Numbered from the stretch's first letter, positions 6,914 through 44,327 are shown. The stretch is DNA of 64,000 nt from Myxococcota bacterium (GCA_023150805.1 JAKLKF010000011.1:19987-83986); one strand, 5' to 3'. The notes: generated by a model not told the origin, from the sequence alone. Translations and numbers: made by a program.

Positions 6914-8296
6914 GTGCCTGCGCAGCGGTCCCAGGTGCCCCTCGAGCTCGGCACCGTCGACCTGATCCGGGGGGTGCTGTATGGCCCCCAGGGCGAGGTC
7001 CGCCTGTCCGTGCACCAGGTCGAGCTGTTGCGATACCTCTCGGAGCGCCCTGGGGTGACCGTGTCCCGAGACGAGCTGCTGCGCGAGGTGTGGCGACACC
7101 CCGGCTCCGACCTGCGCACACGCGCGCCCGACTTCGCCATGCATCGCCTGCGAGCGCTGCTGGAGCGCGACCCGGCGGCGCCGCGCCACCTGCGCACCCA
7201 CGCCGGCCAGGGCTATCGCTTCGAACCGCTGGCCGACGTGCCGGACCCGGACCCGCCGGTTTCCGCCCCGGGCCGCCCGGCGGACGAGCACAGCACCTTC
7301 TCCTTCCCGCCGACCGAAGGCGTGCGTGCCGCCATCGCCCCGCCCGGCACCCCCTACGATCCCGCCTTGCACGTGCCCCGCCCCGCGGCCGAGCGGGACG
7401 CGCGGGACCGCCTGGCCGGTCCGGGTGCGCCGCTGGTGCTCGCGGGCCCGCGGGGCATCGGGAAGTCCTGGTTGCTGGAGCGGCTGCTCGCGGACCTGGC
7501 CGACGAGGATCGGGTCGCGTGGGTGGACGCCGCCGCCATCCCCCACCGACACGAGCCCCGCGCCGTGATGCTCCACATGGGCCTGGCGCTCGCCGAGGCG
7601 GTCGACCTGGATCCGTCGCAGGTGGGCGCGCGCTTCGACGGTGGCGGGGACGGCTTCCGCGCCCTGGGCGCCCTGCTCCAGGGAGAGGTGCTGCCGCGGA
7701 CCCCCGGGCGCCTGCTGTGGGTGATCGACCATGCCGACCGCCTTCGAGTGGCGGCGGAGGGTGCGGCCATCTTCGCCCTGCTCCGCAGCTTCGCGGCGCG
7801 CGCGCGGTCGCCCTGGGAGCGCCTGCGCCTCGCGCTGCTGGTCTCCACCGAGCCGGCCCTGCTGGTGGAGGACCCACACCTCTCGCCCTTCAACCTGGTG
7901 CCCCCCGTCGAGCTGGGCCCCCTGACCGAGGCGGACCTGGCACCGCTGGTGCAGCGGTGCGGTCTGCGCGGGGTCGAGGCGCTGGTCGAGGCCACCGGCG
8001 GGCACCCCTGGCTCGTCCGGCTGGCGCTGCACGCGGCGGTCTACCGCGGGCAGGAGCTGGCGCGGGTCCTCGCGGACGGCGACGTCTTCGCGGCCCACCT
8101 CCACGGGCGGCTGCAGGCGCTCCGAGCGCGCCCCGCGCTGCTGACCGCCTACCAGGACGCGCTGGCGGGGCGGCGGATCGACCCGCTGCTGGCGGCGCGG
8201 CTGGCCAGCGTTGGCCTGCTCGACCGGCAAGGTCGTGCCGGCGCCGGGATCTACCTGCGCTTCTTCGGCAGTGGACCCCTGGGCCCGGGCGTGTGA
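6914..8296 (+). CDS. OmpR-type winged-helix domain + AAA_35 STAND NTPase
   Basis: N-terminal VSRDELLREVW ... LRTHAGQGYRF (Trans_reg_C-like). Walker A GPRGIGKS, Walker B-like LWVIDHAD, and the AAA_35-typical SPFN and TGGHPWL motifs. Confidence 0.8.
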   Translation: MPAQRSQVPLELGTVDLIRGVLYGPQGEVRLSVHQVELLRYLSERPGVTVSRDELLREVWRHPGSDLRTRAPDFAMHRLRALLERDPAAPRHLRTHAGQGYRFEPLADVPDPDPPVSAPGRPADEHSTFSFPPTEGVRAAIAPPGTPYDPALHVPRPAAERDARDRLAGPGAPLVLAGPRGIGKSWLLERLLADLADEDRVAWVDAAAIPHRHEPRAVMLHMGLALAEAVDLDPSQVGARFDGGGDGFRALGALLQGEVLPRTPGRLLWVIDHADRLRVAAEGAAIFALLRSFAARARSPWERLRLALLVSTEPALLVEDPHLSPFNLVPPVELGPLTEADLAPLVQRCGLRGVEALVEATGGHPWLVRLALHAAVYRGQELARVLADGDVFAAHLHGRLQALRARPALLTAYQDALAGRRIDPLLAARLASVGLLDRQGRAGAGIYLRFFGSGPLGPGV

Positions 8297-11229
8297 GCCC
8301 CCCGCGGCTCCAGGTCGGCGGTGCCCTGCGGGAGGGGGCGCTCTACGTGCGGCGCCCGGCGGACACCGACCTGCCCGCGCGCCTCCTCTCGGGAGCCTGG
8401 TGCGCGGTCCTGGCGCCGCGACAGATGGGCAAGTCCTCGCTGCGGGTCCGCGCGGGAGCCGCCCTGGCCGCCGCCGGGCGCCGCGTGCTGCACGTCGATC
8501 TCACGGCGGTCGGGACCGCCAGCCTGGGCGCCGCCGGCTGGCTCTCGGCCTTCGCGGGCGAGGTGGCCGACGAGGCCGGGCTCGATCCACCGCCCTCGGA
8601 TCGTCCGGGCGCCTCGCCGGAACAGGCGCTGCTGCGCTTCTTCGAGCGGGCCCTCCTCCCCGGCGGGCCGACCGTGCTCTTCCTGGACGAGATCGACGCC
8701 CTGCGCAGCCTGGGGCCCGCCGGCGACGCGTTGATGGCCGTGCTCCGTGTCGCCGCCGATCGGCGCGCCCAGGACCCCGCCTGGGGCCAGCTCACCGTCT
8801 GCCTGCTGGGCGCCGCCCCGCTGGCTCGCCTGCAGCGACAAGGTCCGCCGCTGTCCGCGGCCCATCCGGTGCGCCTCGCCGACTTCGGACCGGCCGAGGC
8901 CGCGCAGCTCCGCGCGGCACTGCCGGCCGTGCCTGTCGAACGCGTCCTGCACTGGAGCGGCGGCCACCCCTACCAGACCGCGCGGATCTGCGAGCACCTG
9001 CTCCGGGAGGGCGGAGAGGTGGACGAGGTCGTGCAAGGGCTCTTCCTGCGCGAGGGGCGGGCCCGCGAGGTGGGCCTCGCAGCGGCCGAGCGCGAGCTGT
9101 TGGACGGCGATCCCGCCGAGGGCGCCCGGCTGCGCCTGCTGGGCGCGCTGCACCGGGGCCCCCAGCCCCTGGCCGGCCTCGCGCCCGGGACCGCCGGCGA
9201 CCTGGTGCTGGCGGGCGTCGCCGCCGAGCGTGACGGCCACCTCGCCCTGCGCAGCCCCATCTTCGCGGGCACCTTCGACCTCGCCTGGGTGGCCGAGGCC
9301 CAGCGGCGGCGTCCGCTGGCCCTGCTGGTCGAGCGGTGGCGCGCGGGGGGGCGTCGAGGGATCGACCTGCTGCGCGGTCGGGCGCTGGACGAGGCGCGGG
9401 ACTGGGCCGGCGAGCGCACCGACCTGTCTCCCGACGAGGTGCGCTTCCTGGCGGCCAGCGAGGCGGCGGCCCGCGCGCGCGGGTGGGCGCGCCTGGCCGT
9501 GGGGGCGCTCCTGCTCGCGCTGGTCCTGGCCGGCGCCGGCCTGTTCGTGTTGCAGGCACAGGTGCGCAAGGCGGAGGAGGCCGCGGCCCGGGCCGAGCGC
9601 CTGCGCCAGGCCGCCGCCGCCGTCGCCATGGCCCCCCAGGCCGGACGCGCGCCCGAGGCCCTGGCCGTCGCGCTCTCCACCCTCGCCGAGGGGCCCGTGG
9701 GCACGGCCGCCCTCGCCGAGGTCCTGCGGCACGCCGCGGGCCTGCGCTGGCAGGCCCACGAAGGGCCGGTCGTGCAGGTCGGCTGCGATGGCCAGCAGGC
9801 GCACAGCCGCGGCGCGGACGGCCAGGTCCTTCGCTGGCGCCTGGTTGACGGCGCTGCCCTGGGACCGGGCCAGCTCCCGCCCCCGCCCGCGCCGCCGGCG
9901 TTGGAGATCCTGCCGCGGCGGGTCGCCGAGCTGGGGGGAGCCGCCCTCGCGCCGCCGGTGGACCGGGGCCAGCTCCAGCTCCAGGCCAGGACCGCCGGGG
10001 TCTCGGCAGAGGAGGCCGACCTGATGGTGGCGGTCGACCCGCTCGCCGACCGCGTCCTCCACGCGCTCTACGAGGGTCCGCTGCGTGTCACCACGCGGCA
10101 GGGCGCGCTGCTCGCCACCCTGCCGGGCCACCCGGGTGGTCCGGCGACCTGGGCCGCCTTCCTCCCCGAGGGGCTGCTCACCACCGGCGCCGACGACTCC
10201 TGGCGCCTGTGGGACCCCGGATCGGGCAGGTTGTTGGCGGGCGCGGCACTGGCGCCGAGGCCTCCCACCGACCTGGAGGTCTGCGGGCGCCGCCTGCTCG
10301 CCGGCCACGCCGACGGCACGCTCACGACCTGGGAGATGGTGGCGGGCGCCGGCCGCCTCGCGCTGCCTGGCGCCGCCCTGCGCGCGGGCTGGAGCGCCGA
10401 GGGCGACGCCGTCGTCACCATCGACGAGCAGGGGGCCTTCGCCGCCTGGGCCCGCGCGGACGGCGCCCCCGTCGCGCTGCCCTTGGACCACGCCCTCCGC
10501 GTGCCCGGCCGCATGGCCGCCGACGGCGACCTCCGCTTCGAGGTGGACCGGGACCGCGTCCAGGTCGGCGGCGTGCCGCTTCAGGGGCCGGCCACGCCCT
10601 TGTGGTGCGGCCGCCGGGCCCCTGGCGGCGATCGGGTCGCCATCGCCTGGGGCGAGGGCACCACGACGGTCTGGGAGCGTGCCACCGGCCGGCGCCTGGT
10701 GGACCTGCCTGCCGGGCCGGGCCGCGGCGCCTGCCCCGCCTGGTCGCCGGACGGGCAGTCCCTGGTGCTGGCGGGTCGGGACCACGTGGCCTGGCGGGTC
10801 GACGCCGACGGCGGGCAGCGGGTGGAGCTGCGGGGGCACGAGGGGCTGGTCTACGCCTCGGCCTGGTCTCCCGACGGGCAGGTCATCGCCACCGCCTCCT
10901 TCGATCACACCGCCGCCACCTGGGATCCCCAGGGCCGCCTCCTGCTGCGCCTTCGTGGTCCCGAGAGCCTGCTGCGCGCCCTCACCTTCTCCCCGGACGG
11001 CCAGCGCCTGGCTGCCGGCGGCGACGACGGCCAGGTCTACCTCTGGTCCCTCTCCGACGGCGCCCTGCTCGCGCGCCTCTCGGGCGTGCTGGGGGTCGTG
11101 CGGTCGCTCTCCTTCTCGCCCGACGGCCAGGAGCTGGTCGCGGTCGGGGACGCGCGGATCCCGGTGGTCTTCCCGGCCAGCGCCGACGCGCTGGAGCGGC
11201 TCGCGCGGCTCCGGGCAGGCCTGCGTTGA
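8293..11229 (+). CDS. AAA_35 STAND NTPase with transmembrane helix and C-terminal WD40 repeats (NLR-like)
   Basis: Likely start is GTG 8293 (GTGA overlap). YVRRPAD, Walker A APRQMGKSS, Walker B LFLDEID, WSGGHPYQT, a hydrophobic helix, and GH...WSPDG...WD repeats. Confidence 0.85.
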   Translation: MSPPRLQVGGALREGALYVRRPADTDLPARLLSGAWCAVLAPRQMGKSSLRVRAGAALAAAGRRVLHVDLTAVGTASLGAAGWLSAFAGEVADEAGLDPPPSDRPGASPEQALLRFFERALLPGGPTVLFLDEIDALRSLGPAGDALMAVLRVAADRRAQDPAWGQLTVCLLGAAPLARLQRQGPPLSAAHPVRLADFGPAEAAQLRAALPAVPVERVLHWSGGHPYQTARICEHLLREGGEVDEVVQGLFLREGRAREVGLAAAERELLDGDPAEGARLRLLGALHRGPQPLAGLAPGTAGDLVLAGVAAERDGHLALRSPIFAGTFDLAWVAEAQRRRPLALLVERWRAGGRRGIDLLRGRALDEARDWAGERTDLSPDEVRFLAASEAAARARGWARLAVGALLLALVLAGAGLFVLQAQVRKAEEAAARAERLRQAAAAVAMAPQAGRAPEALAVALSTLAEGPVGTAALAEVLRHAAGLRWQAHEGPVVQVGCDGQQAHSRGADGQVLRWRLVDGAALGPGQLPPPPAPPALEILPRRVAELGGAALAPPVDRGQLQLQARTAGVSAEEADLMVAVDPLADRVLHALYEGPLRVTTRQGALLATLPGHPGGPATWAAFLPEGLLTTGADDSWRLWDPGSGRLLAGAALAPRPPTDLEVCGRRLLAGHADGTLTTWEMVAGAGRLALPGAALRAGWSAEGDAVVTIDEQGAFAAWARADGAPVALPLDHALRVPGRMAADGDLRFEVDRDRVQVGGVPLQGPATPLWCGRRAPGGDRVAIAWGEGTTTVWERATGRRLVDLPAGPGRGACPAWSPDGQSLVLAGRDHVAWRVDADGGQRVELRGHEGLVYASAWSPDGQVIATASFDHTAATWDPQGRLLLRLRGPESLLRALTFSPDGQRLAAGGDDGQVYLWSLSDGALLARLSGVLGVVRSLSFSPDGQELVAVGDARIPVVFPASADALERLARLRAGLR

Positions 11230-21078: not shown

Positions 21079-22635
21079 ATGGCCAACACGCAAATACTCG
21101 CCCTCACGGTTGAACGGTTCAAGAGCTACGAGAAAGCAACGCGCATCGACCTGAAACCGCTGACGGTGGTGCTGGGCCGGAACAGCGGCGGCAAGAGTAC
21201 ACCGGACCCCCGCAGCGAAGTACCGATCAAGCTGGAGGGCTTGGTCGAGGCATTCAACTTGCGCGAGTTGACCTGGGGATGGCCGCCCGCCAACGGTCGG
21301 GTGCCTGGGCCGATCGTGGAGATTGAGTGGACCTCTGATGTCGACATTGCTCAGGCGCGCCATGTGGGCCGAAACCCCGACCCGGAGAATTTGGCGAAAC
21401 ACGCACACGTTGAGTGGTTTCGCGACCTTCCCCCGCGCGCGAACCTTCGAAGTGCCTTGCGGATCGAGACCGCAGAGCATCAAGGAGTCACGCGAATCGA
21501 ACGGCTGACGGTTACGGCAAAGTGCGTGAATGGTGAGCCGTCGTTCGTGTTGACCCAAGAAGGCGGTAGTTGGAAGCTCAGCTACAGGGGTGACCTCGCG
21601 GGGAGACTCGCGGTGGAAGTTGACCACTTCATCCCATACCTCCGGATCGACAGGTCTGACGTTGGCCCGCGTAGCCGGGAGCGCGCGTGGTTCAACGCCT
21701 GGCTCATCTTGTTCGCGCAGCCGCTCGAATCGCTCAAGCGCGCGCTCACCGACCTGCAATACCTTGGGTCAACGCGGGTGCCGCCGCCTTCGCTGTTCCG
21801 TCCGGTGACGGTGGCCCCGCAGGAGATCGGAGTCAGCGGCGAGTTCGCCGCGCAGCTCCTGCACCGGCGCGAACGGGACGTGGTCCACTACCTCCCCGCC
21901 CTCGTGGTCACCGAGGCCTCGGCCTCGATTCCCGAGAACGTCCTCGCACTGCCTCTCGTCGACGCGGTCAACTCCGTGCTGGCAGACCTCTCCATCGGGA
22001 GCCCGGTGAAGGTAGAGGTTGTTCAGGAGATCGGGTTCCGCCTTCTGTTCGGGAATGCGAGCCTCACCCATGTAGGACGCGGGCTGACCTACCTCCTTCC
22101 GCTCGTGGAGTTGGGGTTGTTTGCAGACCCGCTCCGATTCTCAGGTAGTGCGGCGGAGACGCCCCTTGCCGACTACCTTGCGGCCTGTGAGAGTCACTCA
22201 CACATCGCTTTGGAAGAGCCCGAGGCCCACCTGCACCCCAAGGTCCAGAGCCGGTTGGCGCACTGGCTCGTCAGCCTTGCCCTATCGAGGCGACGCCTCA
22301 TCGTCGAGACGCACAGCGATCACCTCGTCCGGCGCTTGAGGGGCCTGGCTGCCAGAGCCGGGGTCGGCAGCCCGCTGGAGAAGTGGCTGCTGGAGAACGT
22401 CGCCGTGATTGAAGTCGAGCAGGATGCGCAGGGACGATCGACCGTACGAACGGGCGGACTCACTGCGGAGGGGGGGATCACGGAGTCCTGGCCTGCCGAC
22501 TTCATGGATGAGGCAAGCGCCGAGGATTCCGCGATCTTCTACGCGGGGCTTGCGAAGGCCCCTGTTGAGTCCCAGGCGCCAGTCGCGTCACCATTCATTC
22601 ATGACGAGGGTGACGAGGATGAGGTGGAGCCGTGA
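21079..22635 (+). CDS. ABC-type ATPase with C-terminal DUF3696-like region (apparent deletion after Walker A)
   Basis: Walker A GRNSGGKST, Walker B ALEEPEAHLHP, H-loop VETHSDH, C-terminal GGITESWPADFMDE. Confidence 0.8.
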   Translation: MANTQILALTVERFKSYEKATRIDLKPLTVVLGRNSGGKSTPDPRSEVPIKLEGLVEAFNLRELTWGWPPANGRVPGPIVEIEWTSDVDIAQARHVGRNPDPENLAKHAHVEWFRDLPPRANLRSALRIETAEHQGVTRIERLTVTAKCVNGEPSFVLTQEGGSWKLSYRGDLAGRLAVEVDHFIPYLRIDRSDVGPRSRERAWFNAWLILFAQPLESLKRALTDLQYLGSTRVPPPSLFRPVTVAPQEIGVSGEFAAQLLHRRERDVVHYLPALVVTEASASIPENVLALPLVDAVNSVLADLSIGSPVKVEVVQEIGFRLLFGNASLTHVGRGLTYLLPLVELGLFADPLRFSGSAAETPLADYLAACESHSHIALEEPEAHLHPKVQSRLAHWLVSLALSRRRLIVETHSDHLVRRLRGLAARAGVGSPLEKWLLENVAVIEVEQDAQGRSTVRTGGLTAEGGITESWPADFMDEASAEDSAIFYAGLAKAPVESQAPVASPFIHDEGDEDEVEP

Positions 22636-23558
22636 TAGCGCTACTGGACCCGGCACTGTTCCTGCGCCCTGGACGCCCTGGGATTCCCCTGGCCGCCCAA
22701 GATGAGGCGGCACTTCTGACGGAGTTGAGGGGAGTGCTCGCGGCCATGAGGATTGCGGGAGCGGACCTCGCGGCAGTGGACGGGTATTGGAGCCCGCTTT
22801 GGACTGAGATCATCGGCCCGCTTCAACGAAGGATGAAGACGGTGGATGGGCCAAAGCTGTTGCAGGAGCTGCGAAAGGCGGGCAGGACATACGAGGGGCT
22901 GGGACCCGTGGCCCCAGGTACGAGAATATGGGGGTTTCGGGCCATGTTCGGTCATGGCTCTGGTGTTCCGGCGGAGTGGGAGGAACGGCTCGCAGTAGCC
23001 GCTGCCCGGCTGGTCGCCATCGGGCGCCCGTTGCTGGTCCTGACCCGGCTCGTCGAAGGTCGCAACTTGCACACCCACATGGGCAAGGCGCACTCCTCCA
23101 TCGCTGAGGTCACCCGATGGCGGCTCTCAGTTCGCCCGCCTCGTTCGGCCGCCAGTACACACATCCCCTGCGTGCGCGCACCCTCGCAGATTCAGCGTCC
23201 CTGGACGGTGCGGTTCGATCCCCGCCTCCCCACCGACCGCGACCTTGTTCGATACCCCTTCTGCCTCCCACAACGGTGGGACCGCCGCGACATCGTCGCA
23301 GTTCGCACCTTCTCCTCTGCACCGGCCTGGGTGGACGCGGCTGGGCGAGAATGGGAGCGCCCGAACATCCCCGAGGGGCGAGGACACCACTGGGACGTCT
23401 TCCTCGATTCTCCTCATGACGTCGGCCGAGTCGGGGTTGACCAGCTCAACATCGTGGAGTTCGGAGCGCCACCGCGCGAGGGCACACCGGGAACGATTCA
23501 CCACGTTCCAGCGGCGAAGGCCGGCCGGGTGACGGACGTAGGTTGGGGCTGTCCATGA
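22632..23558 (+). CDS. Hypothetical protein, possible C-terminal RNase-toxin-like domain
   Basis: GTGA overlap with the ATPase. C-terminal WVDAAGREW ... GHHWDV ... LNI motif. Confidence 0.6.
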   Translation: MIALLDPALFLRPGRPGIPLAAQDEAALLTELRGVLAAMRIAGADLAAVDGYWSPLWTEIIGPLQRRMKTVDGPKLLQELRKAGRTYEGLGPVAPGTRIWGFRAMFGHGSGVPAEWEERLAVAAARLVAIGRPLLVLTRLVEGRNLHTHMGKAHSSIAEVTRWRLSVRPPRSAASTHIPCVRAPSQIQRPWTVRFDPRLPTDRDLVRYPFCLPQRWDRRDIVAVRTFSSAPAWVDAAGREWERPNIPEGRGHHWDVFLDSPHDVGRVGVDQLNIVEFGAPPREGTPGTIHHVPAAKAGRVTDVGWGCP

Positions 23559-23628
23559 GCGCAACTCATCTCGTGGCGAGCTACTGCCACTGCCTCCAGT
23601 GGGCCGCTATCAGCCGAGGAGATCTGTC

Positions 23629-24447
23629 ATGGAAGTCCTGAGCAGCACCGACATCTCCCGCGAGGTCCTCTCCCTCATCGAGGGCTCGCGCCAGTTCCTC
23701 CTGTTGATCTCCGCCTACTTCGACCCATGGGACCGGCTGTCCACCGAGATCAAGCGCGCTGCCACCCGGCCGGGGCTCAAGGTCCTATTGCTGCTCCGCG
23801 GCGGCGACGACCAGAAGAAGCACGCCGAAAAGGCCACCGATCTGGAGCGCGTGGGGGTCAAGGTCCAGTACCTGACCCGCCTGCACGCCAAGGTCTACAT
23901 CAGCGAGTCCCAGGCCATCGTGACCTCGATGAACCTGGTCAAGGCCTCAGCGCTGGACTCCTGGGAGATCGCGATTCGCATCGACCGCGACAAGGACGGC
24001 GAGGCCTACGCCGAGGTGGTCAAGCATGCCAAGGAGCTGCTGACGCGCTCGCGGGACGAGACGACCATCGCGGGGCGGGCGAAGGCCGACGCCCAGGTGG
24101 ACTCGCTGGCTTCGTTGTTCACCCCGGGCAACCTGGGCGCGGTCGCCAAGGTCGTCGAGGCCCTGGTCGGCGCGACCTCGTCGGGCTCCGGCCCCATGAA
24201 GAAGAGCAAGGCGGCGACGCGCAAGACCTCAGGCGCCCGGAAGAGCGCGGCGCCCACTGGTACCTGCATCCGCTGCGGAGATGACATCGCGTTGAACCCC
24301 GACAAGCCCCTATGCGGCTCCTGCTACAAGGAGTGGGCCACCTACGGCAACGCCGACTACAAGGAGAGCTACTGCCACGCCTGCGGGGACGAGCACGTCA
24401 CGACGATGGCCAAGCCCTTGTGCAGGGCCTGCTGGCGGGCCGCATGA
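23629..24447 (+). CDS. PLD-family (HKD) nuclease with C-terminal tandem zinc ribbons
   Basis: LHAKVYISE ... TSMNL (HxKxxxxE ... SxN). Four CxxC pairs: CIRC, CGSC, CHAC, CRAC. Confidence 0.8.
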   Translation: MEVLSSTDISREVLSLIEGSRQFLLLISAYFDPWDRLSTEIKRAATRPGLKVLLLLRGGDDQKKHAEKATDLERVGVKVQYLTRLHAKVYISESQAIVTSMNLVKASALDSWEIAIRIDRDKDGEAYAEVVKHAKELLTRSRDETTIAGRAKADAQVDSLASLFTPGNLGAVAKVVEALVGATSSGSGPMKKSKAATRKTSGARKSAAPTGTCIRCGDDIALNPDKPLCGSCYKEWATYGNADYKESYCHACGDEHVTTMAKPLCRACWRAA

Positions 24448-29674: not shown

Positions 29675-30471
29675 CGGGCCATCTGCACGAAGTGCCCGAG
29701 GGAATCCTGCTCGCGGTGATGCATGCGCTGCGGATGGGAAAGCTCAAGCCACCCTTCACGCGGGCCAGCGTCGAGCACATCGTCGGCGGTCCCCCCTGGC
29801 TCGCTGACGAGCTGTCCAGCCTGGTGGCCCAGGGCCTCTCTCCGGCCGCGATGGCCTGGGGGATCTCCTTGCTGGCCGAGGCCAAGGCCGAGGCGCGCTT
29901 TCACCGCGCCGGCGTCGAGTTGACCTGGACCGGCCCCCCCGACGTCATCACCGAGACCCGCGACACCGGCGCCGTCGCCCGCCAGCTCTTCGCGGCGGCC
30001 AGGACGGACCTGTTGGTCAGCACCTTCGTTGTCGATGGGGGCGACAAGGCCGCCGCTCTGCTCGGTGTGCTCCGCGACCGGCTGGTGCAGCTTCCCGACC
30101 TGCGTGTGCGCTTCTTCCTCAACTTCGCGCGCGCCCACGGCGACACCCGACCCAGCGCGGACCTGCTCGCAGGGCACGCTCGCCGCTTCCTGGAGGATGT
30201 CTGGCCCTGGACCCCCCGGCCCGAGGTCTTCTACGACCGCCGCGCGCTCGATCCCACCCCGGGCCCGCGGTCCTGCCTGCACGCCAAGTGCATCGTCCAG
30301 GACGAGGTGAAGACGCTGATCACGTCGGCCAACCTGACCGAGGCGGCGCAGGAGCGGAACATCGAGGCCGGCGTGCTCGTCACGGATGGTGGCTTCGCGC
30401 GGGAGGTCGTGCTGCAGTTCGAGCGGTTGGTGGCGGCGGGGGTGTTGGTGAGGATGGGGGAGGGGCGGTGA
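29671..30471 (+). CDS. drmC: DISARM phospholipase D nuclease DrmC
   Basis: LHAKCIVQD ... TSANLT ... NIEAG HKD motif, directly downstream of drmB. Confidence 0.9.
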   Translation: MTGHLHEVPEGILLAVMHALRMGKLKPPFTRASVEHIVGGPPWLADELSSLVAQGLSPAAMAWGISLLAEAKAEARFHRAGVELTWTGPPDVITETRDTGAVARQLFAAARTDLLVSTFVVDGGDKAAALLGVLRDRLVQLPDLRVRFFLNFARAHGDTRPSADLLAGHARRFLEDVWPWTPRPEVFYDRRALDPTPGPRSCLHAKCIVQDEVKTLITSANLTEAAQERNIEAGVLVTDGGFAREVVLQFERLVAAGVLVRMGEGR

Positions 30472-30556: not shown

Positions 30557-30567
30557 TTCTGGGAAAC
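30557..30567 (+). promoter_or_regulatory. Putative promoter/operator motif TTCTGGGAAAC (copy 1, upstream of the CHAT gene)
   Basis: An identical 11-mer occurs at 35223..35233. Both copies lie 50-55 nt upstream of a GGAGGYCCGATG start. Confidence 0.4.
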
Positions 30568-30617: not shown

Positions 30618-33600
30618 ATGAAGACCCGCAAGGACGACCCGGCCCGTCTGCGCTCCCTGTTCCGGATGTACCCATACTTCGACGCGGTCTCGCGCGCGCG
30701 GAGCCGCGCCGACGACGGGACCCGCCGGGAAGACGATGTCTTCCGCCTGCTCCTCTCGGCGATGGACAAGTGGGCCCGGCGCCCGTCGCTCGACGAGATG
30801 ATGAACTTCCTGCCGTTCGCCCTGAACACTGACGAGGTGGCCTGGTTCGCGCTCATCTACGCGGCGCACCGCTGGCATCGGGACACGCCGGGCGCGGCGC
30901 CGGGGCTGGTCGCGGTCACGAACGCGTTGGCTCGTTCGGATGTCGCTCGGAACAAGTCCAGTGCCTTGTGGACCGCCTTGTGGCCACGCGCCATCGAGCT
31001 GGCTCGCAGCCTCGGCGACGGGGAGGGAGCCAGGCTGTCCCGTTGGGGACTGGAAGAGACGTTCGGGTCCACGCTGGCCGGCCACCGTGACTCGGTCACG
31101 CGGATGCGGGGGCGGGACCTGCTCCTTGGTCTCCGCAACGAGCTGGAGGAAGCTCTGGCTGGCGGTTTGGAGGGCAAGCTGGCTGAGAACGTCGCCTTCC
31201 TCTATGGCCGCTGCCTGGCCAACCTCGGCCAGACCTACACCGACATCGGGCTGCACGACGACTCGCTTGCGACCTTGGAGCAGGCGCTCGCTTTTCACGA
31301 CCAGGCAATGGCGGTCCCAGCCCGCATGGCCTTCGTGCAGTGCCGGTACCACTCGCTGCGGATGCGCTCGACCACCCGCAAGCTGGTCGCGCACCGACTG
31401 GGCGAGGACCAGTCCGACCGCGCGCGCACCCTGCTCGACGGCGCCCTGGCCGACGTGGAGGCGGCAGTGGCGCTCTACCGCCAGCACCCGGCGGTCCGTG
31501 AGATCGACGGCGAGGGAATCCTCCGCAACCTGGCCAGCACTCGCATGGACTGGGTTCACCAAAGACTCCTCGCCGAGGACCTGGATCCCACCCAGGCAGC
31601 GCGCATGCTGGAGGAGGTGGAGGCGCTGCTCACCGAGGTGCGCCGCTCCACCGATCCTCGGGTGCTGGTGGGGCTGGCCCAGACCGAGCTGGAACTGAGG
31701 CAGGTGCGGGGGCTCCTGGACGCTGGTCAGGATGCCATCGAGCTGGGGGATCTGGCCGTCATCTTGGGCTCGGCCCTGGCGACCCGCGAGCTTCCCGGTG
31801 GCCACGGCGTCGATGGTCAGCGTGCAAGGCATGCCGTCCACGCCCTGCATGGGTGGGCGTCCCGTGACGATGCACGGCTCCCTGCAGCGATGTGGCACAT
31901 GCTCGCGGAGTTCCTGGCCTGGCTGGAGCCCGAGGAGGTGGGGCTGGACCTCTTGACCGGTGCCATCGCCGCCGAGGTGACCCTGCTTTCGCGGGAGGAC
32001 GGTCGCCCCCACGACGGCTGGGACCCGGTCAACTACTTCTACGAGGCACTGCGCGAGTTCGACCGGCGCTTGCGTGACCCGGGCCTGACCAACGCCGAGC
32101 GCCTGCTCTATGCGGGCTGGATGCGGCGGCTCGTCCAGGTCCGGTATTCCTGGTCCGTGTGTTCCGAAGGGCGCCCCCTTTCCACCGAGGAGGAACTGAC
32201 CCTGCCAGATCGCCTGGGCTCCTCGGCCTGGCGCTCGGACCTGAACTTCTTCGGTGCAGGGGCGGTCAAGGAGGACCTGACGTACACCGAGCAGGGCTGG
32301 CGCTGCGACCTCTACCGGACCCGCTGGCAGCGTGACGCGGCGGCGAAGGTCCTGGAGATCGAAGCGCTCGCCAGGTGGGTGCCCGAGGCCGGTGAGTGGC
32401 TGCAGCACCTCGCGCGCGGCCAGGTCACCTGTGAGGTCCTGCCCCATGACACGCCCGAGGTGGTTGTCCGCCAGAAGGCCGCCGGGGGAGAGTGGTTCAC
32501 CTCGCCTGATGGCATCATGATCCCGACGCGATGGACGCCCGACTTCGCCAGGGAGCAGCTCCGCGTACTGGAGGCGGAGCTGCTGCTCGCCCTGCAGGTG
32601 GGCAAGGACCAGGGATGGCGCCCGGCGACGAACCAGTCCATCCCGCTGCCCAGCGCCGAGGGGGTCACCGCCTGGCTGGCCGCCCACCCGGCGGTCGCTC
32701 TCCTCCTGGTCGGTGAAGGCCCGGCGCGGCTCTGCCATGCCGCCAAGGGTGGACTGCACTGGCATCGCGTCGACCTTCCGATCGGCCACCCGCTCTCCGA
32801 GCGGGTCGGCGACTACATCCACGCCCGCGATGAGCACTCCTTCGGGAGCGCGGAGGACACCGACGAGGCGCAGGCCCAGATCGCCTGCTCGCTTTCCAAC
32901 ATGGAGGGGGACCCAGAGCAACACAGTGCAAAGCGGACCTCCGTCGCCACACCGCACGCGGCCGCCCGGCTGGGCAAAGCCCTGGACGGCCTGCTCGACC
33001 TGCTCGGAGAGGTCCTGCGGCCGGCGCTCGAAGGGGCGATCGCGGCGGGCGTGCGCCACCTGCTCGTCCTCCCACGCGGCTGGGCGCGCCACGTGCCTTG
33101 GGGCGCCGTACGCCTGAGAGGGGCCGTACTCGCGGACAGGCTCCCGGTGTCGATGGTGGAGACGCTCGCCGATGTCGAGCGTGTCGCAGCGCGTCGTGGT
33201 CCCACGCTGCTGTACGTCGGCGGTCAGGCCGGCCCGGAGAGCCCTCTGCATGTCGGAAAGCTCTGCCTGACCCCGCACGCAGACCAGGTCGCAGGCCCCC
33301 TTGGCCGCGACGGCTTCGAGGACCTCGCCCGCCGCGCCCGCGTGCTCCGCGTCATGGCGCACGGCGAAGCCCTCGTGGTATTCCAGCAGTCCAGCGGCAT
33401 CATCCTGGATGAGTTCTATCCCGAGGGTCACAACCGCTACGCGGCGGACGAGATGCGGGCCCTGGACTTGCGCGGAGCGCGGCGGGTCGAGCTGTGGGCC
33501 TGCGAGAGCGGGCGGGACGACGAGACCTTCCGCGATCTCTTCCACCATGACGAGCCCGGCGGCCTGGATGGCGCGCTGCTGCTTGCGGGCGCCGAGGTCG

Positions 33601-34040
33601 TCGTCAGCTCGCTGTGGGTGCAATACGCGCTCAGCGCCGCCATGATCGGGGAGGCCTTCGCAGTACGCGCACAGGCGCACCCAGACCGCTCGGAAGCCGA
33701 AGCGTTGGCCTGGGCGGTTTCCCAGTACCGGGCGGCAATGGAGACCGATGGCGTCTTCGCCTCGGCGGTCGAGGTGCGCCTGCGCGCCGGTCGCTGTTCC
33801 AACGAGGAGGCATTGGTGAACGGGCTTCTCGCCTGGCGCGCGAGCCTCGGGATCGAGATGGGTGACGCTGTGTTCGTCCATGGCGACGTGCTGGCACAGC
33901 TCGGCAAGGCGCTTCCTTCGCGAAGCTCGCCGCGCGCCCGCGCGGATGACCTGCTCGGGCCGCTCCGCTCGCCGGTGGCCTGGGCGGGGTGGAAGATCAC
34001 GCTCCGGAGCAAGGAGGTGCTGTGGCCCGCGCGCGGTTGA
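30618..34040 (+). CDS. TPR-like helical protein with C-terminal CHAT (caspase-like, clan CD) protease domain
   Basis: Catalytic His in RVMAHGE and Cys in ELWACESG, followed by GLDGALLLAGAEVVVSSLW. TPR-like GRCLANLGQTYTDIG...LEQAL. RBS GGAGG. Confidence 0.85.
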   Translation: MKTRKDDPARLRSLFRMYPYFDAVSRARSRADDGTRREDDVFRLLLSAMDKWARRPSLDEMMNFLPFALNTDEVAWFALIYAAHRWHRDTPGAAPGLVAVTNALARSDVARNKSSALWTALWPRAIELARSLGDGEGARLSRWGLEETFGSTLAGHRDSVTRMRGRDLLLGLRNELEEALAGGLEGKLAENVAFLYGRCLANLGQTYTDIGLHDDSLATLEQALAFHDQAMAVPARMAFVQCRYHSLRMRSTTRKLVAHRLGEDQSDRARTLLDGALADVEAAVALYRQHPAVREIDGEGILRNLASTRMDWVHQRLLAEDLDPTQAARMLEEVEALLTEVRRSTDPRVLVGLAQTELELRQVRGLLDAGQDAIELGDLAVILGSALATRELPGGHGVDGQRARHAVHALHGWASRDDARLPAAMWHMLAEFLAWLEPEEVGLDLLTGAIAAEVTLLSREDGRPHDGWDPVNYFYEALREFDRRLRDPGLTNAERLLYAGWMRRLVQVRYSWSVCSEGRPLSTEEELTLPDRLGSSAWRSDLNFFGAGAVKEDLTYTEQGWRCDLYRTRWQRDAAAKVLEIEALARWVPEAGEWLQHLARGQVTCEVLPHDTPEVVVRQKAAGGEWFTSPDGIMIPTRWTPDFAREQLRVLEAELLLALQVGKDQGWRPATNQSIPLPSAEGVTAWLAAHPAVALLLVGEGPARLCHAAKGGLHWHRVDLPIGHPLSERVGDYIHARDEHSFGSAEDTDEAQAQIACSLSNMEGDPEQHSAKRTSVATPHAAARLGKALDGLLDLLGEVLRPALEGAIAAGVRHLLVLPRGWARHVPWGAVRLRGAVLADRLPVSMVETLADVERVAARRGPTLLYVGGQAGPESPLHVGKLCLTPHADQVAGPLGRDGFEDLARRARVLRVMAHGEALVVFQQSSGIILDEFYPEGHNRYAADEMRALDLRGARRVELWACESGRDDETFRDLFHHDEPGGLDGALLLAGAEVVVSSLWVQYALSAAMIGEAFAVRAQAHPDRSEAEALAWAVSQYRAAMETDGVFASAVEVRLRAGRCSNEEALVNGLLAWRASLGIEMGDAVFVHGDVLAQLGKALPSRSSPRARADDLLGPLRSPVAWAGWKITLRSKEVLWPARG

Positions 34041-34621
34041 CCGATGCGGAGGAGGCCGAGCTGGTCGACGAGCTGGCCCGCGCGCTCGAAGCCGTCGTGG
34101 ACACGAGCGGCTGCCGGGACATGCTCTCGCTCTACCTCCTCGCCACGCAGCAGCCACGCCGCGAGTTCCTGGCCGACGACCCTTGGGGGCGGAGCGCACC
34201 ACCCCTCTCCCCGCGCCTGGCCGGGATGGTGAAGGGATCGCGCAGCAAGTACGGTGCGCTCGCCGCCTGGCGTCACGCAGTGCTCTGGCGGGAGGTGCGC
34301 GACCGGGTCGACCCACACTTCTGCGAGGCGATGGACGTTCTCTACTTCGGGCCCTACGCCGAGAACGCACCGCCGTACGCGTGGACCCGGCGGTCGTCGG
34401 AAGCTCCGGGAGCGGATCGCTTCTCCGGCCCCAACGAGCTGGATCGCTTCGCGCGTGAGGGGTGCTGGTCGACCGTCCAGGTGCTTCGGGAAGTGGCACG
34501 CTCCGGCGGAGGCTCGGTGCGAGACGAGGCACGGCGCGCTTTCGTTCGAGCCGGTGTGAAACGATCGTTGCGCGACGTGTTGCGGCTGGAAGAGCAGTGG
34601 GAGGACGACTCAGATGACTGA
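34022..34621 (+). CDS. Hypothetical protein, weakly sigma-70 region 4-like
   Basis: AAGGAGG precedes GTG 34022 and the gene overlaps both neighbours. WREVRDRVDPHFCEAMDVLYFG and VLREVARSGGGS..RAGVKRSLRDVL loosely echo sigma regions 4.1 and 4.2. Confidence 0.6.
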   Translation: MARARLTDAEEAELVDELARALEAVVDTSGCRDMLSLYLLATQQPRREFLADDPWGRSAPPLSPRLAGMVKGSRSKYGALAAWRHAVLWREVRDRVDPHFCEAMDVLYFGPYAENAPPYAWTRRSSEAPGADRFSGPNELDRFAREGCWSTVQVLREVARSGGGSVRDEARRAFVRAGVKRSLRDVLRLEEQWEDDSDD

Positions 34622-35222
34622 AGACACGCTGCGTGCCTGGCTCCGCGGGCACCTTTCACCGGTGCGCCGGCGCGAGGTGACCGTCTGGATGTTGCGATGC
34701 AAGGACCCGGCCCTGCCCCTCCTGCTCGAAGCGCTCACCCGCGAGTATGAAGACGAGCAGGCGGACCGGAGGCTGCTCGCGCGTGTCCCGGGGGCCTCCC
34801 CGGTCGTGGAAGGCTGGCGCTGGTTGCTCGAGATGGGGCGTGCGGCGTGGACTGCCGGGCAGTCCGCAGCCGCGTTGGCGGTGCTGTCCACGGGGGAGAG
34901 GGTCACGGAGGAGGGGCTCTTGGTGGTGGCCGCCGAAGAAGGCGCCCTCCGACTGGGTGTCCGGTTGCGGACGGGCGGCCAGGTGGCGCTGTTCGTTTCT
35001 GACGATGCGGGAGGTGCACCCACGGCGCTTCTCAATGAGCCGCTGGGCCCGGGGACCTGGAACGACCTGGCGGCGTGGCAGCCAGAGTTGGGCGATGGCC
35101 GGATCACGCTCTGGCTCTTTTTCGCGCCGCAGACCCTGCCGGACTCGTTGGGCGGGTGCCTGGATGCCGCCCGCCGAGGTTCGGCCCAGGCGTGGGCACG
35201 CCGCTGGGAGGCCGATGGTTGA
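34614..35222 (+). CDS. Putative anti-sigma-factor-like protein (degenerate ZAS-type N-terminus plus beta-rich C-terminal domain)
   Basis: EDTLRAWLRGHLSPVRRREVTVWMLRC parallels the L.ayldGeL....r..ve.Hl..C pattern of zf-HC2 anti-sigmas but lacks the full zinc ligand set. Confidence 0.55.
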   Translation: MTEDTLRAWLRGHLSPVRRREVTVWMLRCKDPALPLLLEALTREYEDEQADRRLLARVPGASPVVEGWRWLLEMGRAAWTAGQSAAALAVLSTGERVTEEGLLVVAAEEGALRLGVRLRTGGQVALFVSDDAGGAPTALLNEPLGPGTWNDLAAWQPELGDGRITLWLFFAPQTLPDSLGGCLDAARRGSAQAWARRWEADG

Positions 35223-35233
35223 TTCTGGGAAAC
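35223..35233 (+). promoter_or_regulatory. Putative promoter/operator motif TTCTGGGAAAC (copy 2)
   Basis: Identical to 30557..30567 and located immediately after the stop codon at 35222. Confidence 0.4.
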
Positions 35234-35288
35234 CCGGCTCCCCGGTAGCCCCGGCGGGACATGGAGGGCACGAACCCCAGGAGGTCCG

Positions 35289-35573
35289 ATGTCTTCAAGG
35301 AGTACAGTCGCTTTCCGTCCAGACCGCACCCGCGTCGCCGTGCTCGGTGGCGACGGCCGGTTCCGACCCGAGACCCTCACCGGCTGTGAGGTCCGGGTTT
35401 TTCTCGGTCGTCGCTACGGTGGCAATGGCGAGCTGAGGCGCCTGGAGCGGTCGCTGCGATCGGGCCGCATCGATCGGGTCCTCATCCTGGCGCGCTGGAA
35501 CGGCCACTCGGCGACAACCCTGGTGATCCGCCTCTGCCGGGCGCTCGGGATCCCGGTCGAGGTGCGGCCGTGA
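35289..35573 (+). CDS. Small DUF2325-like protein
   Basis: Strong RBS AGGAGG. VAVLGG ... IDRVLILARWNGHSAT ... CRALGIPV resembles the DUF2325 pattern. Confidence 0.65.
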   Translation: MSSRSTVAFRPDRTRVAVLGGDGRFRPETLTGCEVRVFLGRRYGGNGELRRLERSLRSGRIDRVLILARWNGHSATTLVIRLCRALGIPVEVRP

Positions 35574-35628
35574 CCGGTCGCTGTCCGGACTTCCTTCTCG
35601 CCCGCGTCTCTGACCTACGAGGTGCACC

Positions 35629-37197
35629 ATGACGACCCGCTCCCCCTCCCTACTGCTTGTCGATCCCGGCTCATCGCGCAGCGAGCTGAACGAGCCCATC
35701 GGCATCGACGCCGTGGCGGCGGCCGCCGCAGCGACCACCGGGGCCACGGTCCACCAGTCCTTCGCTCCACTCTCGCGCCTGCCTGTGCCTGCCGACTACG
35801 AGAACGCCGACATCCTCGGCCTGTCGATGCCGCTGGGCTCGCTCGCGGCCTCGCGTGCCTTCGTGCAGGGGTGGCGCTCGTTGCCCGCACAGCTTCGGCC
35901 TCTGCTCGTGCTGGGCGGGCTCCTGCCGACCTTCGCCACGGACGCCGTGCTGGACGAGTTCCCCGAGGCGATCCTGGTGGTCGGTGAGGGGGAAGACGCC
36001 ATCGGCGGGCTGGTGGCCGCCGTCGCCAATGGCCCGGGCGCCGGAGTCCGAGGACGGCTCGAACAGGGGTCCGTCCCCAACCTGGTCTTCCGCGCAGGGG
36101 ACCAGGTGGTGCGCACGCCGCGCCGCCTGGTCGAGCTGGCGGATGCCCTGCCGCCAACCCGCGCGTGGACGGGACAGGTCGCCACCCAGGGCGGCATCGT
36201 GCGTGCCGAGGCCTCGCGGGGATGCTCTTGGGGCCGGTGCACCTTCTGCGCCATCCAGCACAAGTACTGCGACCAGGCCCGCTGGCGCGACTTCCCCGTC
36301 GCGCGTGTACTCGAGCAACTCGAACACCTCTCCGCCGCCGGGGTCCGCCACCCCTACTTCACGGACGAGGACTTCGTCGGCGACGACCCGGTGCGCACGA
36401 TCCTCCTCGCGCGCGGGATCACGGAGGCGAAGGCCCGCGGGCAGATCGCGCGGGAGCTGACGCTCTACGTGGACATGCGCGTGGACAGCATCCTGGCCGC
36501 CGGGTCCGCCAGGGGGCCGTCCGGTGCCGATGTCCTGGTGGCGCTCCGCGCGGCCGGCCTGCGGGAGGTCTTCGTCGGCATCGAGTCCGGATCGCGCGAG
36601 CAGGTGCGCCGGTACAAGAAGCCCGCAACAGCGGCTCGCAACCTGCGCGCCCTCTCGCTCCTCCGCGAGCTGGGCATCGAGGTCGACGTCGGCTTCATCT
36701 TCTTCGACCCCGAGATGTCGCTCGACGAGGCGGCTGCCAACCTGGACTTCCTGCGAGAAGCCGGGCTCTGGTCCCACGACGCGCGTCTTACCAAAGAGGT
36801 TCGCGTGCAGGCCGGCACGCCCCTGGTCGACCAGTACCGGGACAGGGGCTTCCTAGTCGGTCCACTCGATGTGGACGACCTGACCTTCCCCTACCGCTGG
36901 GTCGATCCCCGCGTCGAGGCCGTGCACGAGGCCTTCCGAGCCTGGGAGTCCATCGACCGGGCTGGAGTCTACCTGCTCCAAGCGGCCACCCGCGGCGAGG
37001 TGCTCGTCGCCCGTCAACGCCGTGCGCGGCGCGACCTGCTCGGTCGGATCCGAGCCGTGGAGCACGAGGCGCTGGAGGCGCTCGTGCGCGCAGCACAGGC
37101 AGGTCGCGACCCGGGGGCGGTGGAGCTGGGGTGGTTCACCGAGCGACGGCGGGCGCTGCTCGACTCGTGGGCCTCGGTGGAAGAGCGAGCGGCGTGA
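35629..37197 (+). CDS. Cobalamin-binding (class B) radical SAM enzyme
   Basis: B12-binding-like LVLGGLLPT ... VVGEGE, cluster motif RGCSWGRCTFC, then VFVGIESGS and GFIFFDP. RBS GAGG. Confidence 0.9.
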   Translation: MTTRSPSLLLVDPGSSRSELNEPIGIDAVAAAAAATTGATVHQSFAPLSRLPVPADYENADILGLSMPLGSLAASRAFVQGWRSLPAQLRPLLVLGGLLPTFATDAVLDEFPEAILVVGEGEDAIGGLVAAVANGPGAGVRGRLEQGSVPNLVFRAGDQVVRTPRRLVELADALPPTRAWTGQVATQGGIVRAEASRGCSWGRCTFCAIQHKYCDQARWRDFPVARVLEQLEHLSAAGVRHPYFTDEDFVGDDPVRTILLARGITEAKARGQIARELTLYVDMRVDSILAAGSARGPSGADVLVALRAAGLREVFVGIESGSREQVRRYKKPATAARNLRALSLLRELGIEVDVGFIFFDPEMSLDEAAANLDFLREAGLWSHDARLTKEVRVQAGTPLVDQYRDRGFLVGPLDVDDLTFPYRWVDPRVEAVHEAFRAWESIDRAGVYLLQAATRGEVLVARQRRARRDLLGRIRAVEHEALEALVRAAQAGRDPGAVELGWFTERRRALLDSWASVEERAA

Positions 37198-43142: not shown

Positions 43143-44327
43143 GTGTCTGCCGCCGTCCCCCCCGCCGACACCGCCACGCTGGTCTCCAGCCTCTCGGCGC
43201 TGCCGGCTGCCTTCCGCCTGGACCTCGCCGACCTGGAGGCGGTGCGCCTGGTGCTGCGGGGAGACAGCGTCATCGACTGGAACCGGGCGGCCTTCGCCGA
43301 CCTGCGGGCCGTCGATCACTACCTGCGGCTGCACCGGCTGGACTGGCAGGACCCAGAGGATCGCCGCCGCGTGGAGTACGTGCACATCCAGGCGATCAGC
43401 TACCTGGAAGAGCACCTGGGCCTGCGCTTCCCCACCGAGCTCAAGGAGCCGTCGGACGTGCGGCAGGTCTTCCTGGCTGCCAGCCAGACCGGGGGCTTCC
43501 GGCGGCGGCAGGTCCTGGCCTGCGTGGTGCTCAAGCTGATGCACACGATCGCGCACCTCGAGGCCGCCGAGCTGCGCTTCCAGACCGCCCTGTCCGAGGC
43601 CGACCTGCTGGACCAGGCCGAGCGGCGGATCCGCGACTGCGCCGAGCGCATGCGGGCCGACGGCCTGCCCCTGGTCTCCTTCTACGGCAACCGCAAGAGC
43701 CGCAACTCGATCATCACCAAGCTGCTCGCCAAGAAGGAGGCGACCGCGGCCACGGTCTTCGACAAGCTGCGCTTCCGCGTGGTGGTCGAGGAGCGGGAGC
43801 ACATCGTCCCCGCCATCGCGTGGCTGACCCGCAACCTGCTGCCCTTCAACTACGTGATCCCGGGCGAGAGCCACAACAACCTGGTCGATCTCGTGGGCGA
43901 GCTGCAGCGGCCGGAGTGGCGAAGGCTGGCGGGCCAGCTCCACGGCTTCACCGAGGACCCCGACCAGGCCTACAACCCCGAGGAGAACCCCTTCTCGGGC
44001 AAGAGCTACCGGGTGGTCAACTTCATCGTGGACTTCCCGGTGCGCATCGACCACCTGGGCCTGCAGCGCTACGGCTCGTCCATGCTCGGGCGGGTGGTCT
44101 TCGTCCTGGTCGAGTTCCAGGTGCTGGACGCCGCGACGGCCGAGTCCAACGAGACGGGGGACGCCTCGCACGCGCTGTACAAGGAGCGGCAGCGCGCGAT
44201 CGTGGCCAGCCGCCTGCGCAAGGGCGGGCGCTACAAGCGCAAGCGGGTGACGCGGGCCGAGCGGGAGGCCAACGGCGACCACGACGCCAACAGCAACGGC
44301 GAGGGGCCGGCGGCGGACGAGGAGTAG
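43143..44327 (+). CDS. TIGR04552-like protein with RelA/SpoT-type nucleotidyltransferase features
   Basis: RLVLRGDSVIDW, FDKLRFRVV, SGKSYRVVNF, VEFQV and SHALYKERQ. The family is recalled as myxobacterial. Confidence 0.65.
   Translation: MSAAVPPADTATLVSSLSALPAAFRLDLADLEAVRLVLRGDSVIDWNRAAFADLRAVDHYLRLHRLDWQDPEDRRRVEYVHIQAISYLEEHLGLRFPTELKEPSDVRQVFLAASQTGGFRRRQVLACVVLKLMHTIAHLEAAELRFQTALSEADLLDQAERRIRDCAERMRADGLPLVSFYGNRKSRNSIITKLLAKKEATAATVFDKLRFRVVVEEREHIVPAIAWLTRNLLPFNYVIPGESHNNLVDLVGELQRPEWRRLAGQLHGFTEDPDQAYNPEENPFSGKSYRVVNFIVDFPVRIDHLGLQRYGSSMLGRVVFVLVEFQVLDAATAESNETGDASHALYKERQRAIVASRLRKGGRYKRKRVTRAEREANGDHDANSNGEGPAADEE

Follow-up and report, generated by a model that had tools for sequence, protein, structure and literature searches.

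The subject of this analysis is a candidate defence cassette of five genes, located at positions 30618-37197 of a 64,000-nt stretch of DNA from a Myxococcota bacterium (GCA_023150805.1, JAKLKF010000011.1:19987-83986; hereafter the window, with positions counted from its first letter). The cassette had been singled out in an earlier note made from the sequence alone. The source bacterium derives from activated-sludge and wastewater metagenomes, and the G+C content of the window is about 72%. The open reading frames (ORFs) of all five genes, designated P1 to P5, are present and share one orientation (Table 1). The gene for P1 starts 146 nt after the end of drmC at position 30471 and overlaps the P2 gene by 19 nt, P2 and P3 overlap by 8 nt, and gaps of 66 and 55 nt separate P3 from P4 and P4 from P5, respectively. 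These coordinates agree with the gene order, overlaps and gap reported in the earlier note, as does its remark on a codon usage looser than that of the host: G+C content at third codon positions (GC3) is 0.79-0.87 in the cassette, compared with 0.93-0.98 in the flanking host genes and 0.90-0.94 in the adjacent genes of the defence island system associated with restriction-modification (DISARM). The cassette is present in a single copy in the host genome, and several sludge assemblies hold it unchanged.

Table 1. Genes and cis elements of the cassette, with positions in the window
Feature	Position	Strand	Length or location
P1, CHAT protease	30618-34040	+	1140 aa
P2	34022-34621	+	199 aa
P3	34614-35222	+	202 aa
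P4, DUF2325-like	35289-35573	+	94 aa
P5, predicted cobalamin radical SAM enzyme	35629-37197	+	522 aa
Cis element TTCTGGGAAAC, copy 1	30557-30567	+	50 nt before the CHAT start codon
Cis element TTCTGGGAAAC, copy 2	35223-35233	+	directly after the P3 stop codon, 55 nt before the P4 start codon

The constant core of the cassette is a triad comprising the protease, P2 and P3, which recurs in about 20 loci. About 20 distinct loci (referred to below by numbers with the prefix L) were retrieved and scanned with our own profiles and with Pfam. In all recovered loci that contain a P2 or P3 match, these two genes are neighbours and a protease gene adjoins them. Six-frame searches detected the P2 family in 16 of the 154 genomes of the host's order, and strong matches to the P3 family in 9 of the 400 genomes of the phylum. 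A word-indexed homologue search with P3 returned only the query itself; its relatives emerged in an exhaustive HMMER search, which gave 79 cluster representatives, all of about 200 aa, and a metagenome scan with a narrower P3 alignment yielded one locus. Most of the loci lie in defence islands, with DISARM, Mrr, pPIWI-RE, SLFN or OLD-like genes in the vicinity, and among the neighbours matched by our own profiles or Pfam no Cas gene was found beside the triad in related loci. The earlier proposal of a stand-alone, protease-centred module free of CRISPR (clustered regularly interspaced short palindromic repeats) was thus borne out by the neighbourhood search, in which the module recurred both with and without DISARM. 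Comparison of P1-P5 with PADLOC-DB v2, which covers known and candidate systems, gave no match at an E value of 1 or below; none of the five proteins was named by NCBIfam, and the P2, P3, P4 and CHAT proteins of L070, L101, L102, L099, L104 and L019 likewise had no match in PADLOC-DB v2. The module is regarded as a horizontally mobile, modular defence-island system and a candidate new defence system.

The related loci differ in their distance from the window. The CHAT protease, P2, P3 and P4 of L009 share 71%, 74%, 60% and 54% identity with their counterparts, and this locus has no radical SAM (S-adenosylmethionine) gene. In L019, from a distant proteobacterial metagenome-assembled genome, P4 and the radical SAM protein are 74% and 53% identical to those of the window; the likeness of CHAT and P2 is barely detectable by sequence, and that of P3 is undetectable. 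L019, L103 and L104 form a second clade, in which P2 is longer (315-329 aa), the P3-like protein (190-202 aa) is missed by our P3 profile, and the CHAT proteins are tandem or very large, reaching 1880 aa.

By its domain content P1 is predicted to be a CHAT (caspase-like) peptidase, in which a large helical region at the N-terminus precedes a CHAT domain at the C-terminus; Pfam matches the CHAT domain over residues 799-1124 with an E value of 8.6e-16 and a score of 58.6 bits (gathering cut-off, 24). The His/Cys dyad, which the earlier note had described as intact, consists of H915 (AHG) and C962 (WACESG) and is invariant in four homologues with identity down to 42%. The label TPR-CHAT given to this protein stands in its CHAT part and is weak in its TPR part: TPR models match P1 only marginally (Pfam E values of 0.04-0.24), and the L019 relative matches TPR_12 at 3e-4. 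A search of P1 against PDB sequences gave nothing meaningful and no match to Csx29, the protease of type III-E CRISPR systems, and no further members of the close CHAT subfamily came to light when GTDB genomes were scanned by motif. The C-terminal tail of P1, RSPVAWAGWKITLRSKE, is invariant in homologues. At 33990-34040 the coding sequence of this tail, RSPVAWAGWKITLRSKE.LWP, runs across the ribosome-binding site and start of P2, and the overlap region is therefore doubly constrained.

The protease of the triad is exchanged between loci. It is of the CHAT type in the window, L009, L077, L064, L050/L095, L067-L070, L019 and L104, and a subtilase (Peptidase_S8, Pfam E value of 3e-30) in L065, L066, L096-L099 and L101-L103, where it is either co-directional with P2-P3 or divergent from them, depending on the locus. 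Both S8 and CHAT proteases are present in L103. Since the protease is exchanged while P2 and P3 stay, the two small proteins are probably its substrates or regulators.

P2 is a member of a new protein family, the alignment of which contains the conserved motif SRSKYxALAAWRH. Its AlphaFold 2 model has a predicted local distance difference test (pLDDT) score of 84 and a predicted template modelling (pTM) score of 0.86, and shows one compact all-alpha domain. No match to P2 was found in Pfam at an E value of 1 or below, including Sigma70_r2 and Sigma70_r4, or in PADLOC, NCBIfam and PDB sequences, and Foldseek detected no matching fold, the best hits having E values of 0.49 in PDB and 0.43 among the viral models of BFVD. 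Assignment of P2 as an extracytoplasmic function (ECF) sigma factor with sigma2 and sigma4 domains was rejected for want of a Sigma70 match in Pfam and of a Foldseek match. The terms sigma-like and anti-sigma-like in the earlier note were interpretations of the small proteins and not observations; the former, applied to this 199-aa protein, is unsupported in view of a confident model that matches nothing in PDB or BFVD and of the missing Pfam sigma domains.

The model of P3, based on a 42-sequence alignment (pLDDT 91), comprises four N-terminal helices (residues 3-73) and an immunoglobulin-like (Ig-like) beta-sandwich (residues 77-199). Foldseek matches in PDB are limited to generic Ig-like beta-sandwiches, and nothing meaningful was found among PDB sequences; the P3 sequence of the window has no Pfam match. 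The N-terminal pattern LRxWxRGxLxPxxRRxVxxWxxRCxDPxLP is in register with zf-HC2 anti-sigma factors, and 5 of the 42 family members match zf-HC2 marginally, with a best E value of 0.005. When the P3 family was compared by hhalign with two anti-sigma factors encoded in this genome, neither reached significance, one of them aligning in register with P 0.026. The zinc motif HxxxCxxC is absent from P3, where the His position is taken by an invariant tryptophan (W25) and only one Cys is present. Judged from these alignments, the likeness of P3 to anti-sigma factors appears weak.

Both leaders of the cassette carry a cis element, TTCTGGGAAAC (Table 1). The 7.77-Mb genome contains two exact copies of this 11-mer, both in the cassette leaders, against 0.5 expected from base composition. 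In most loci GTTCTGGGAAAC or one of the close variants GTTCCGGGAAAC, GTTTTGGGAAAC and GATTGGGAAAC lies 39-62 nt upstream of start codons, before the protease or P2 gene and before the first cargo gene after P3. Elements of the GTTCTGGGAAAC type were found in the window, L009, L077, L064, L050, L065, L066, L067 and L096-L102, with cargo-side copies in L009, L077, L064, L099, L101 and L102, and in the long-P2 clade (L103, L104) GGGGGAAACCG occupies equivalent positions. Searched for in a degenerate form, the element has 21 matches in 152 kb of system loci compared with 2.06 per Mb in the host genome. As the element accompanies the module into different hosts and stands before core and cargo alike, it is most simply interpreted as a promoter or operator that a factor encoded by the system would recognise. 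A scan for sigma-70 promoters and terminators was uninformative. A transcriptional output had been suggested in the earlier note, and a system-specific motif preceding the core operon and the P4/radical SAM genes fits that idea; the account given there lacked this family-wide two-leader motif, as well as the likeness of P5 to the radical SAM enzyme OxsB and the occurrence of a viperin in its slot elsewhere, both described below.

Other copies and sequences were observed near these elements. A third copy with one mismatch lies on the minus strand inside the CHAT gene at 33717-33727 and is probably due to chance. In L050, two more minus-strand copies, at 973 and 2177, are oriented towards genes that diverge from the CHAT operon, and the regulon of this locus seems to include at least four promoters. 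L065 (~9470-9543) and L096 (~7990-8062, minus strand) have in common GTGTGATTCCAAGG[GA]TGTCA after the second element copy, and then an inverted repeat (TGTCAG...CTGACA or TGTCAC...GTGACA); a further regulatory element or a small RNA may lie here.

A literal sigma/anti-sigma circuit would have P2 as a highly degenerate ECF sigma factor, released when CHAT cleaves an anti-sigma factor P3, and GGGAAAC as its -35 element. The -35 elements of ECF promoters (GGAAC/TGAAAC) resemble the GGGAAAC core, whose spacing from the start codons would suit a promoter; P2 is as long as an ECF sigma factor and its model is all-alpha, the P3 N-terminus keeps the register of zf-HC2, and the arrangement parallels CalpL-CalpT-CalpS and Csx29-Csx30-RpoE. 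Such a circuit is nevertheless quite unlikely, as the model of P2 is a single compact domain with no match among the many sigma structures of PDB, Sigma70_r2 and Sigma70_r4 fail to match even at an E value of 1, the zinc ligands of P3 are absent, and inspection of the system loci sequences revealed no conserved -10 element at a spacing of 16-18 nt downstream of GGGAAAC.

The genes that follow P3 vary from locus to locus, and radical SAM enzymes are frequent at this position, the cargo slot. In the window and in L019 it contains P4 and a P5-type B12 radical SAM enzyme. In L077 (CHAT 62% identical to P1), L103 and L104 the corresponding radical SAM protein, of about 280 aa, is a true prokaryotic viperin (pVip), with PADLOC E values of 1e-73 to 1e-81. 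A third family, the B12 radical SAM enzymes of the PADLOC candidate PDC-M51A, occupies the slot in L070/L069, L101 and L102; PADLOC E values are 1e-142 to 1e-151 for L070 and L101, and the protein of L102 was assigned to the family by its 46-49% identity to those of L070/L101. The remaining cargo includes an RNase III-like gene (L050/L095), DUF4258 (L065), a small protein with an MkoA-like helicase (L097, L098) and P4 alone (L009, L064, L099), and in L068 no obvious enzyme cargo follows P3.

P4 aligns with 75 of the 94 profile positions of Pfam DUF2325 (PF10087), at an E value of 0.004 and a score of 17.7 bits, the cut-off being 33.6, and has no match in PDB. It follows pVip with a 7-nt overlap in L077 and L104, precedes the PDC-M51A-type radical SAM gene in L101 and L102, and in L017 occurs with a P5-type radical SAM gene but without the triad. 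Its place beside OxsB-like, PDC-M51A-type and pVip genes makes P4 a companion of three radical SAM families. A 75-aa ORF between P3 and the radical SAM gene of L070 was considered as a P4 analogue and rejected, since it is Arg-rich, starts with TTG and looks spurious.

P5 is predicted to be a cobalamin-dependent (class B) radical SAM enzyme of the OxsB-like type. Pfam Radical_SAM matches it with an E value of 1.5e-11 (45 bits), and the B12-binding domain scores 28 bits, just below the gathering score. A family profile built from 27 homologues hits OxsB (5UL2) with an E value of 2e-51, the next structure in PDB being at 1.8e-10, and the single P5 sequence reaches OxsB at 1.2e-28. The cysteines of its CX4CX2C motif (C199, C204, C207) are invariant in the 27 homologues. 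This cluster motif is a peculiarity of OxsB, which acts with the HD phosphohydrolase OxsA in the ring contraction of 2'-deoxyadenosine phosphates that leads to the antiviral nucleoside oxetanocin A (PMC9204698). The alignment of P5 with OxsB spans the cobalamin and radical SAM core and begins at OxsB residue 142-178. Homology of P4 to domain I of OxsB was considered as well and found no support, P4 having no PDB match. By Pfam the cassette contains no HD-domain gene that could be an OxsA partner, and P5 is not a viperin, since it does not match the PADLOC pVip profiles. Relatives of P5 number 76 in a large protein collection, and the family was found in 34 loci among about 185,000 species genomes, in both bacteria and archaea, and is rare and patchy. 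Close members of the family adjoin genes for immune-type proteins; in L031 the P5 relative lies beside a TIR-STAND-HEAT gene. From the slot shared with viperin, the kinship with OxsB and the phosphohydrolase neighbours of its relatives, we infer that P5 may be a nucleotide-modifying antiviral effector.

Three loci with P5 homologues have arrangements of their own. In L010 (10001-14833) a homologue with 60% identity is followed, with no gap, by a gene for a 1089-aa DUF4145-NACHT protein in a pPIWI-RE island, and this pair looks like a separate two-gene candidate system. The radical SAM homologue of L014 (8001-16922) directly precedes a 2447-aa ORF without a Pfam match, beside SLFN_AlbA_2 and SWI2_SNF2 genes. 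In L016 (7241-11529) a homologue with 59% identity is flanked by genes for a 223-aa metallophosphoesterase, a 476-aa protein with an HD domain and two large STAND-like ATPases, a layout that recalls the OxsA/OxsB pair.

The composition of the cargo slot bears on two other explanations. In the first, P2-P3 would themselves be the effector, either as a toxin with its inhibitor or as a latent complex freed by proteolysis; the genes after P3 would be independent defence neighbours, and the motif would be only a promoter or operator common to genes under an island regulator. Proteases that act on a latent effector are common, gasdermin systems being an example; L068 is without obvious enzyme cargo, L009, L064 and L099 carry only P4, and both pVip and PDC-M51A have catalogue entries of their own as defence genes. 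However, the element is unique to the cassette in its genome and links core and cargo across many hosts, the recurrence of three radical SAM families in the slot would not arise from chance adjacency, P4 and pVip overlap by 7 nt in two loci, and Foldseek finds P2 and P3 unlike known toxins or pore-formers. This explanation is considered unlikely.

In the second, the locus would be a secondary-metabolite pathway resembling those for peptides made by ribosomes and modified after translation (RiPPs), with no immune role: the substrate of the radical SAM enzyme would be a peptide (P4 or some other small product), and the protease would serve as a maturation peptidase. Cobalamin radical SAM enzymes are frequent in RiPP and antibiotic pathways, to which weak NCBIfam matches point, and a protease with small proteins recalls maturation cassettes. 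The locus, however, has neither a peptide resembling a precursor nor a transporter or further biosynthetic genes, P4 is a folded, conserved domain of alpha/beta type and not a hypervariable core peptide, relatives have viperin, nucleases or helicases in the slot, and the module is found in defence islands. A pathway of this kind is very improbable.

The island in which the cassette resides was also considered. On its 5' side lies a class 1 DISARM system carrying inserted cargo, with DrmMI, DrmA, DrmB and DrmC confirmed by PADLOC and an SNF2 domain speaking for DrmD; on the right follow host core genes (yaiI/DUF188, a methyltransferase and mfd). With DISARM upstream and host genes downstream, the cassette forms the right edge of the island. 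The earlier note had described it as appended to DISARM, which holds for its position; dependence on DISARM was rejected, since no other triad locus contains DISARM proteins. Of all the loci fetched, the window and L006 alone have them and at least 17 relatives do not, and the cassette is not a constant part of class 1 DISARM loci. L006 resembles the window in its CHAT protein (42% identical) and its DrmD-like protein (34%), and DrmD- and DrmMI-like genes adjoin the CHAT gene in both. A functional extension of DISARM, in which CHAT and its partners would regulate or back up the neighbouring system, could be argued from this, as the window and L006 are the two closest CHAT loci with known flanks and their DrmD- and DrmMI-like genes have diverged to a similar degree. 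It is hardly probable in view of the other triad loci, of the CHAT gene, which is not on the same side of DISARM in the window as in L006, and of the absence of the element from the DISARM operon. The adjacency is probably island co-residence, although a link confined to this CHAT subfamily may exist.

Three more features of the window were recorded outside the cassette. The interior of DISARM contains, at 21079-23558, a two-gene insert of lower G+C content (GC3 0.72-0.77), which encodes an AAA_15/AAA_21 ATPase (best PADLOC match NsnB, E value of 1.3e-39) and a 308-aa protein without a family match. It is followed by a PLD-domain gene at 23599-24447. Downstream of mfd, at 43143-44327, lies a 394-aa ORF with only a weak match to RelA_SpoT (E value of 1e-3).

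On balance, these data argue for a protease-gated transcriptional switch that would turn on nucleotide-modifying effectors, a reading in which we place modest confidence. In the uninfected cell the anti-sigma-like helical domain of P3 would hold P2 inactive. Upon a trigger, the signal-sensing protease would cleave one of the pair, most likely P3, and the freed P2 would act as a transcription factor of a new fold at GGGAAAC elements, presumably through binding to DNA or RNA polymerase, boosting the core operon and switching on the cargo. In the window the cargo consists of P4 and P5, of which P5 would convert a nucleotide or deoxynucleotide into an antiviral analogue. Viperins make 3'-deoxy-3',4'-didehydronucleoside triphosphates (ddhNTPs), and P5 is proposed to act by analogy with them and with OxsB in the route to oxetanocin A. 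The complete version of this scheme, that of an inducible antiviral system in which a CHAT protease or subtilase frees the new-fold P2 from P3 and GTTCTGGGAAAC promoters then drive the synthesis of toxic or chain-terminating nucleotide analogues by interchangeable radical SAM enzymes, including a role in phage defence, is offered tentatively and is rather doubtful in all its parts together.

Several observations weigh against the proposed switch. The role of P2 as the factor that reads the motif is a conjecture, as neither a helix-turn-helix nor a sigma domain was detected in it by Pfam or Foldseek; the missing -10 element is a further point, and the motif could be an operator or an RNA feature instead of a promoter. 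The CHAT homologue with 42% identity (L006-L008) has no P2 or P3 downstream, and the protease is therefore able to exist without this pair. The likeness of P5 to OxsB concerns the core only, with the N-terminal domain and OxsA absent, which makes the inference of its substrate weak, and several OxsB-like family members are solitary in housekeeping contexts (L012, L015). The cassette is covered by contigs of activated-sludge metatranscriptomes (99-100% identity), which speaks weakly for its expression; the RNA signal consists of assembled contigs that possibly contain DNA. Conservation of the motif opens the transcriptional hypothesis to a direct test.

In the literature searched, the module itself, OxsB-like enzymes in defence and protease-linked viperins were not found described, and there was no report of pVips under a protease/P2/P3 module. 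pVip is a radical SAM effector of defence islands and takes the place of P5 in three of the related loci; P5 differs from it in being cobalamin-dependent by prediction, in its length of 522 aa, in its CX4CX2C motif and in the lack of a PADLOC pVip match. Component A of PDC-M51, a B12 radical SAM defence candidate, follows the protease-P2-P3 core in L070, L101 and L102 and belongs to a family different from that of P5 (profile E values of about 1e-7 to 6e-4). If the proposed switch is correct, it would provide the first regulatory context for pVips, some viperins being under protease-gated transcriptional control, and the OxsB-like and PDC-M51A families would be unrecognised viperin-like immune effectors and candidate makers of antiviral nucleotides.

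OxsB is by far the closest relative of P5 with a solved structure, and both combine a Rossmann-type cobalamin domain, a radical SAM core and CX4CX2C. OxsB accepts dAMP, dADP and dATP. Its domain I and C-terminal bundle are unmatched in P5, and an OxsA-type HD phosphohydrolase is not encoded in the cassette; HD and metallophosphoesterase genes occur only in the relative L016. The contexts also differ, OxsB being encoded on a producer plasmid and P5 in a defence island. Oxetanocin-type chemistry would, if P5 acts as proposed, be a widespread bacterial antiviral strategy and a route to new nucleoside chemistry.

Systems that pair gasdermins with proteases resemble the module in having an exchangeable CHAT protease or subtilase beside a small partner and in their location in defence islands. 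They differ in that no gasdermin is present here and the P2 and P3 models have no structural match to gasdermins. The neighbours of the cassette in the window are DISARM and host genes, in accordance with the earlier statement that neither a Cas gene nor a gasdermin is found there; Cas7-11 and homologues of Csx30/Csx31, which would mark a type III-E locus, are likewise absent from the window.

In type III-E CRISPR systems the TPR-CHAT protease Csx29 reportedly cleaves Csx30, which controls a sigma factor. Like the Csx29-Csx30-Csx31-RpoE and CalpL-CalpT-CalpS systems, the module has a protease beside small partners, one of them with an anti-sigma-like element, and the logic proposed for it is likewise that of a regulator freed by proteolysis; P1 also shares with Csx29 the combination of a CHAT catalytic domain and a large helical N-terminal region. 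Unlike them, the module has no linked Cas gene, SAVED domain or cyclic-oligoadenylate sensor, its protease may be a subtilase, and its output would be an effector slot with exchangeable contents, labelled by a motif that the system itself carries. Neither in sequence nor in fold is a kinship of P2 and P3 with Csx30, Csx31, CalpT, CalpS or sigma factors detectable. If the proposed switch is correct, the protease, P2, P3 and the 12-nt motif would make up a compact, portable sensor-promoter pair usable as an inducible genetic switch, and the module would be a CRISPR-independent counterpart, built from unrelated proteins, of the Craspase/CalpL protease-to-transcription switches.

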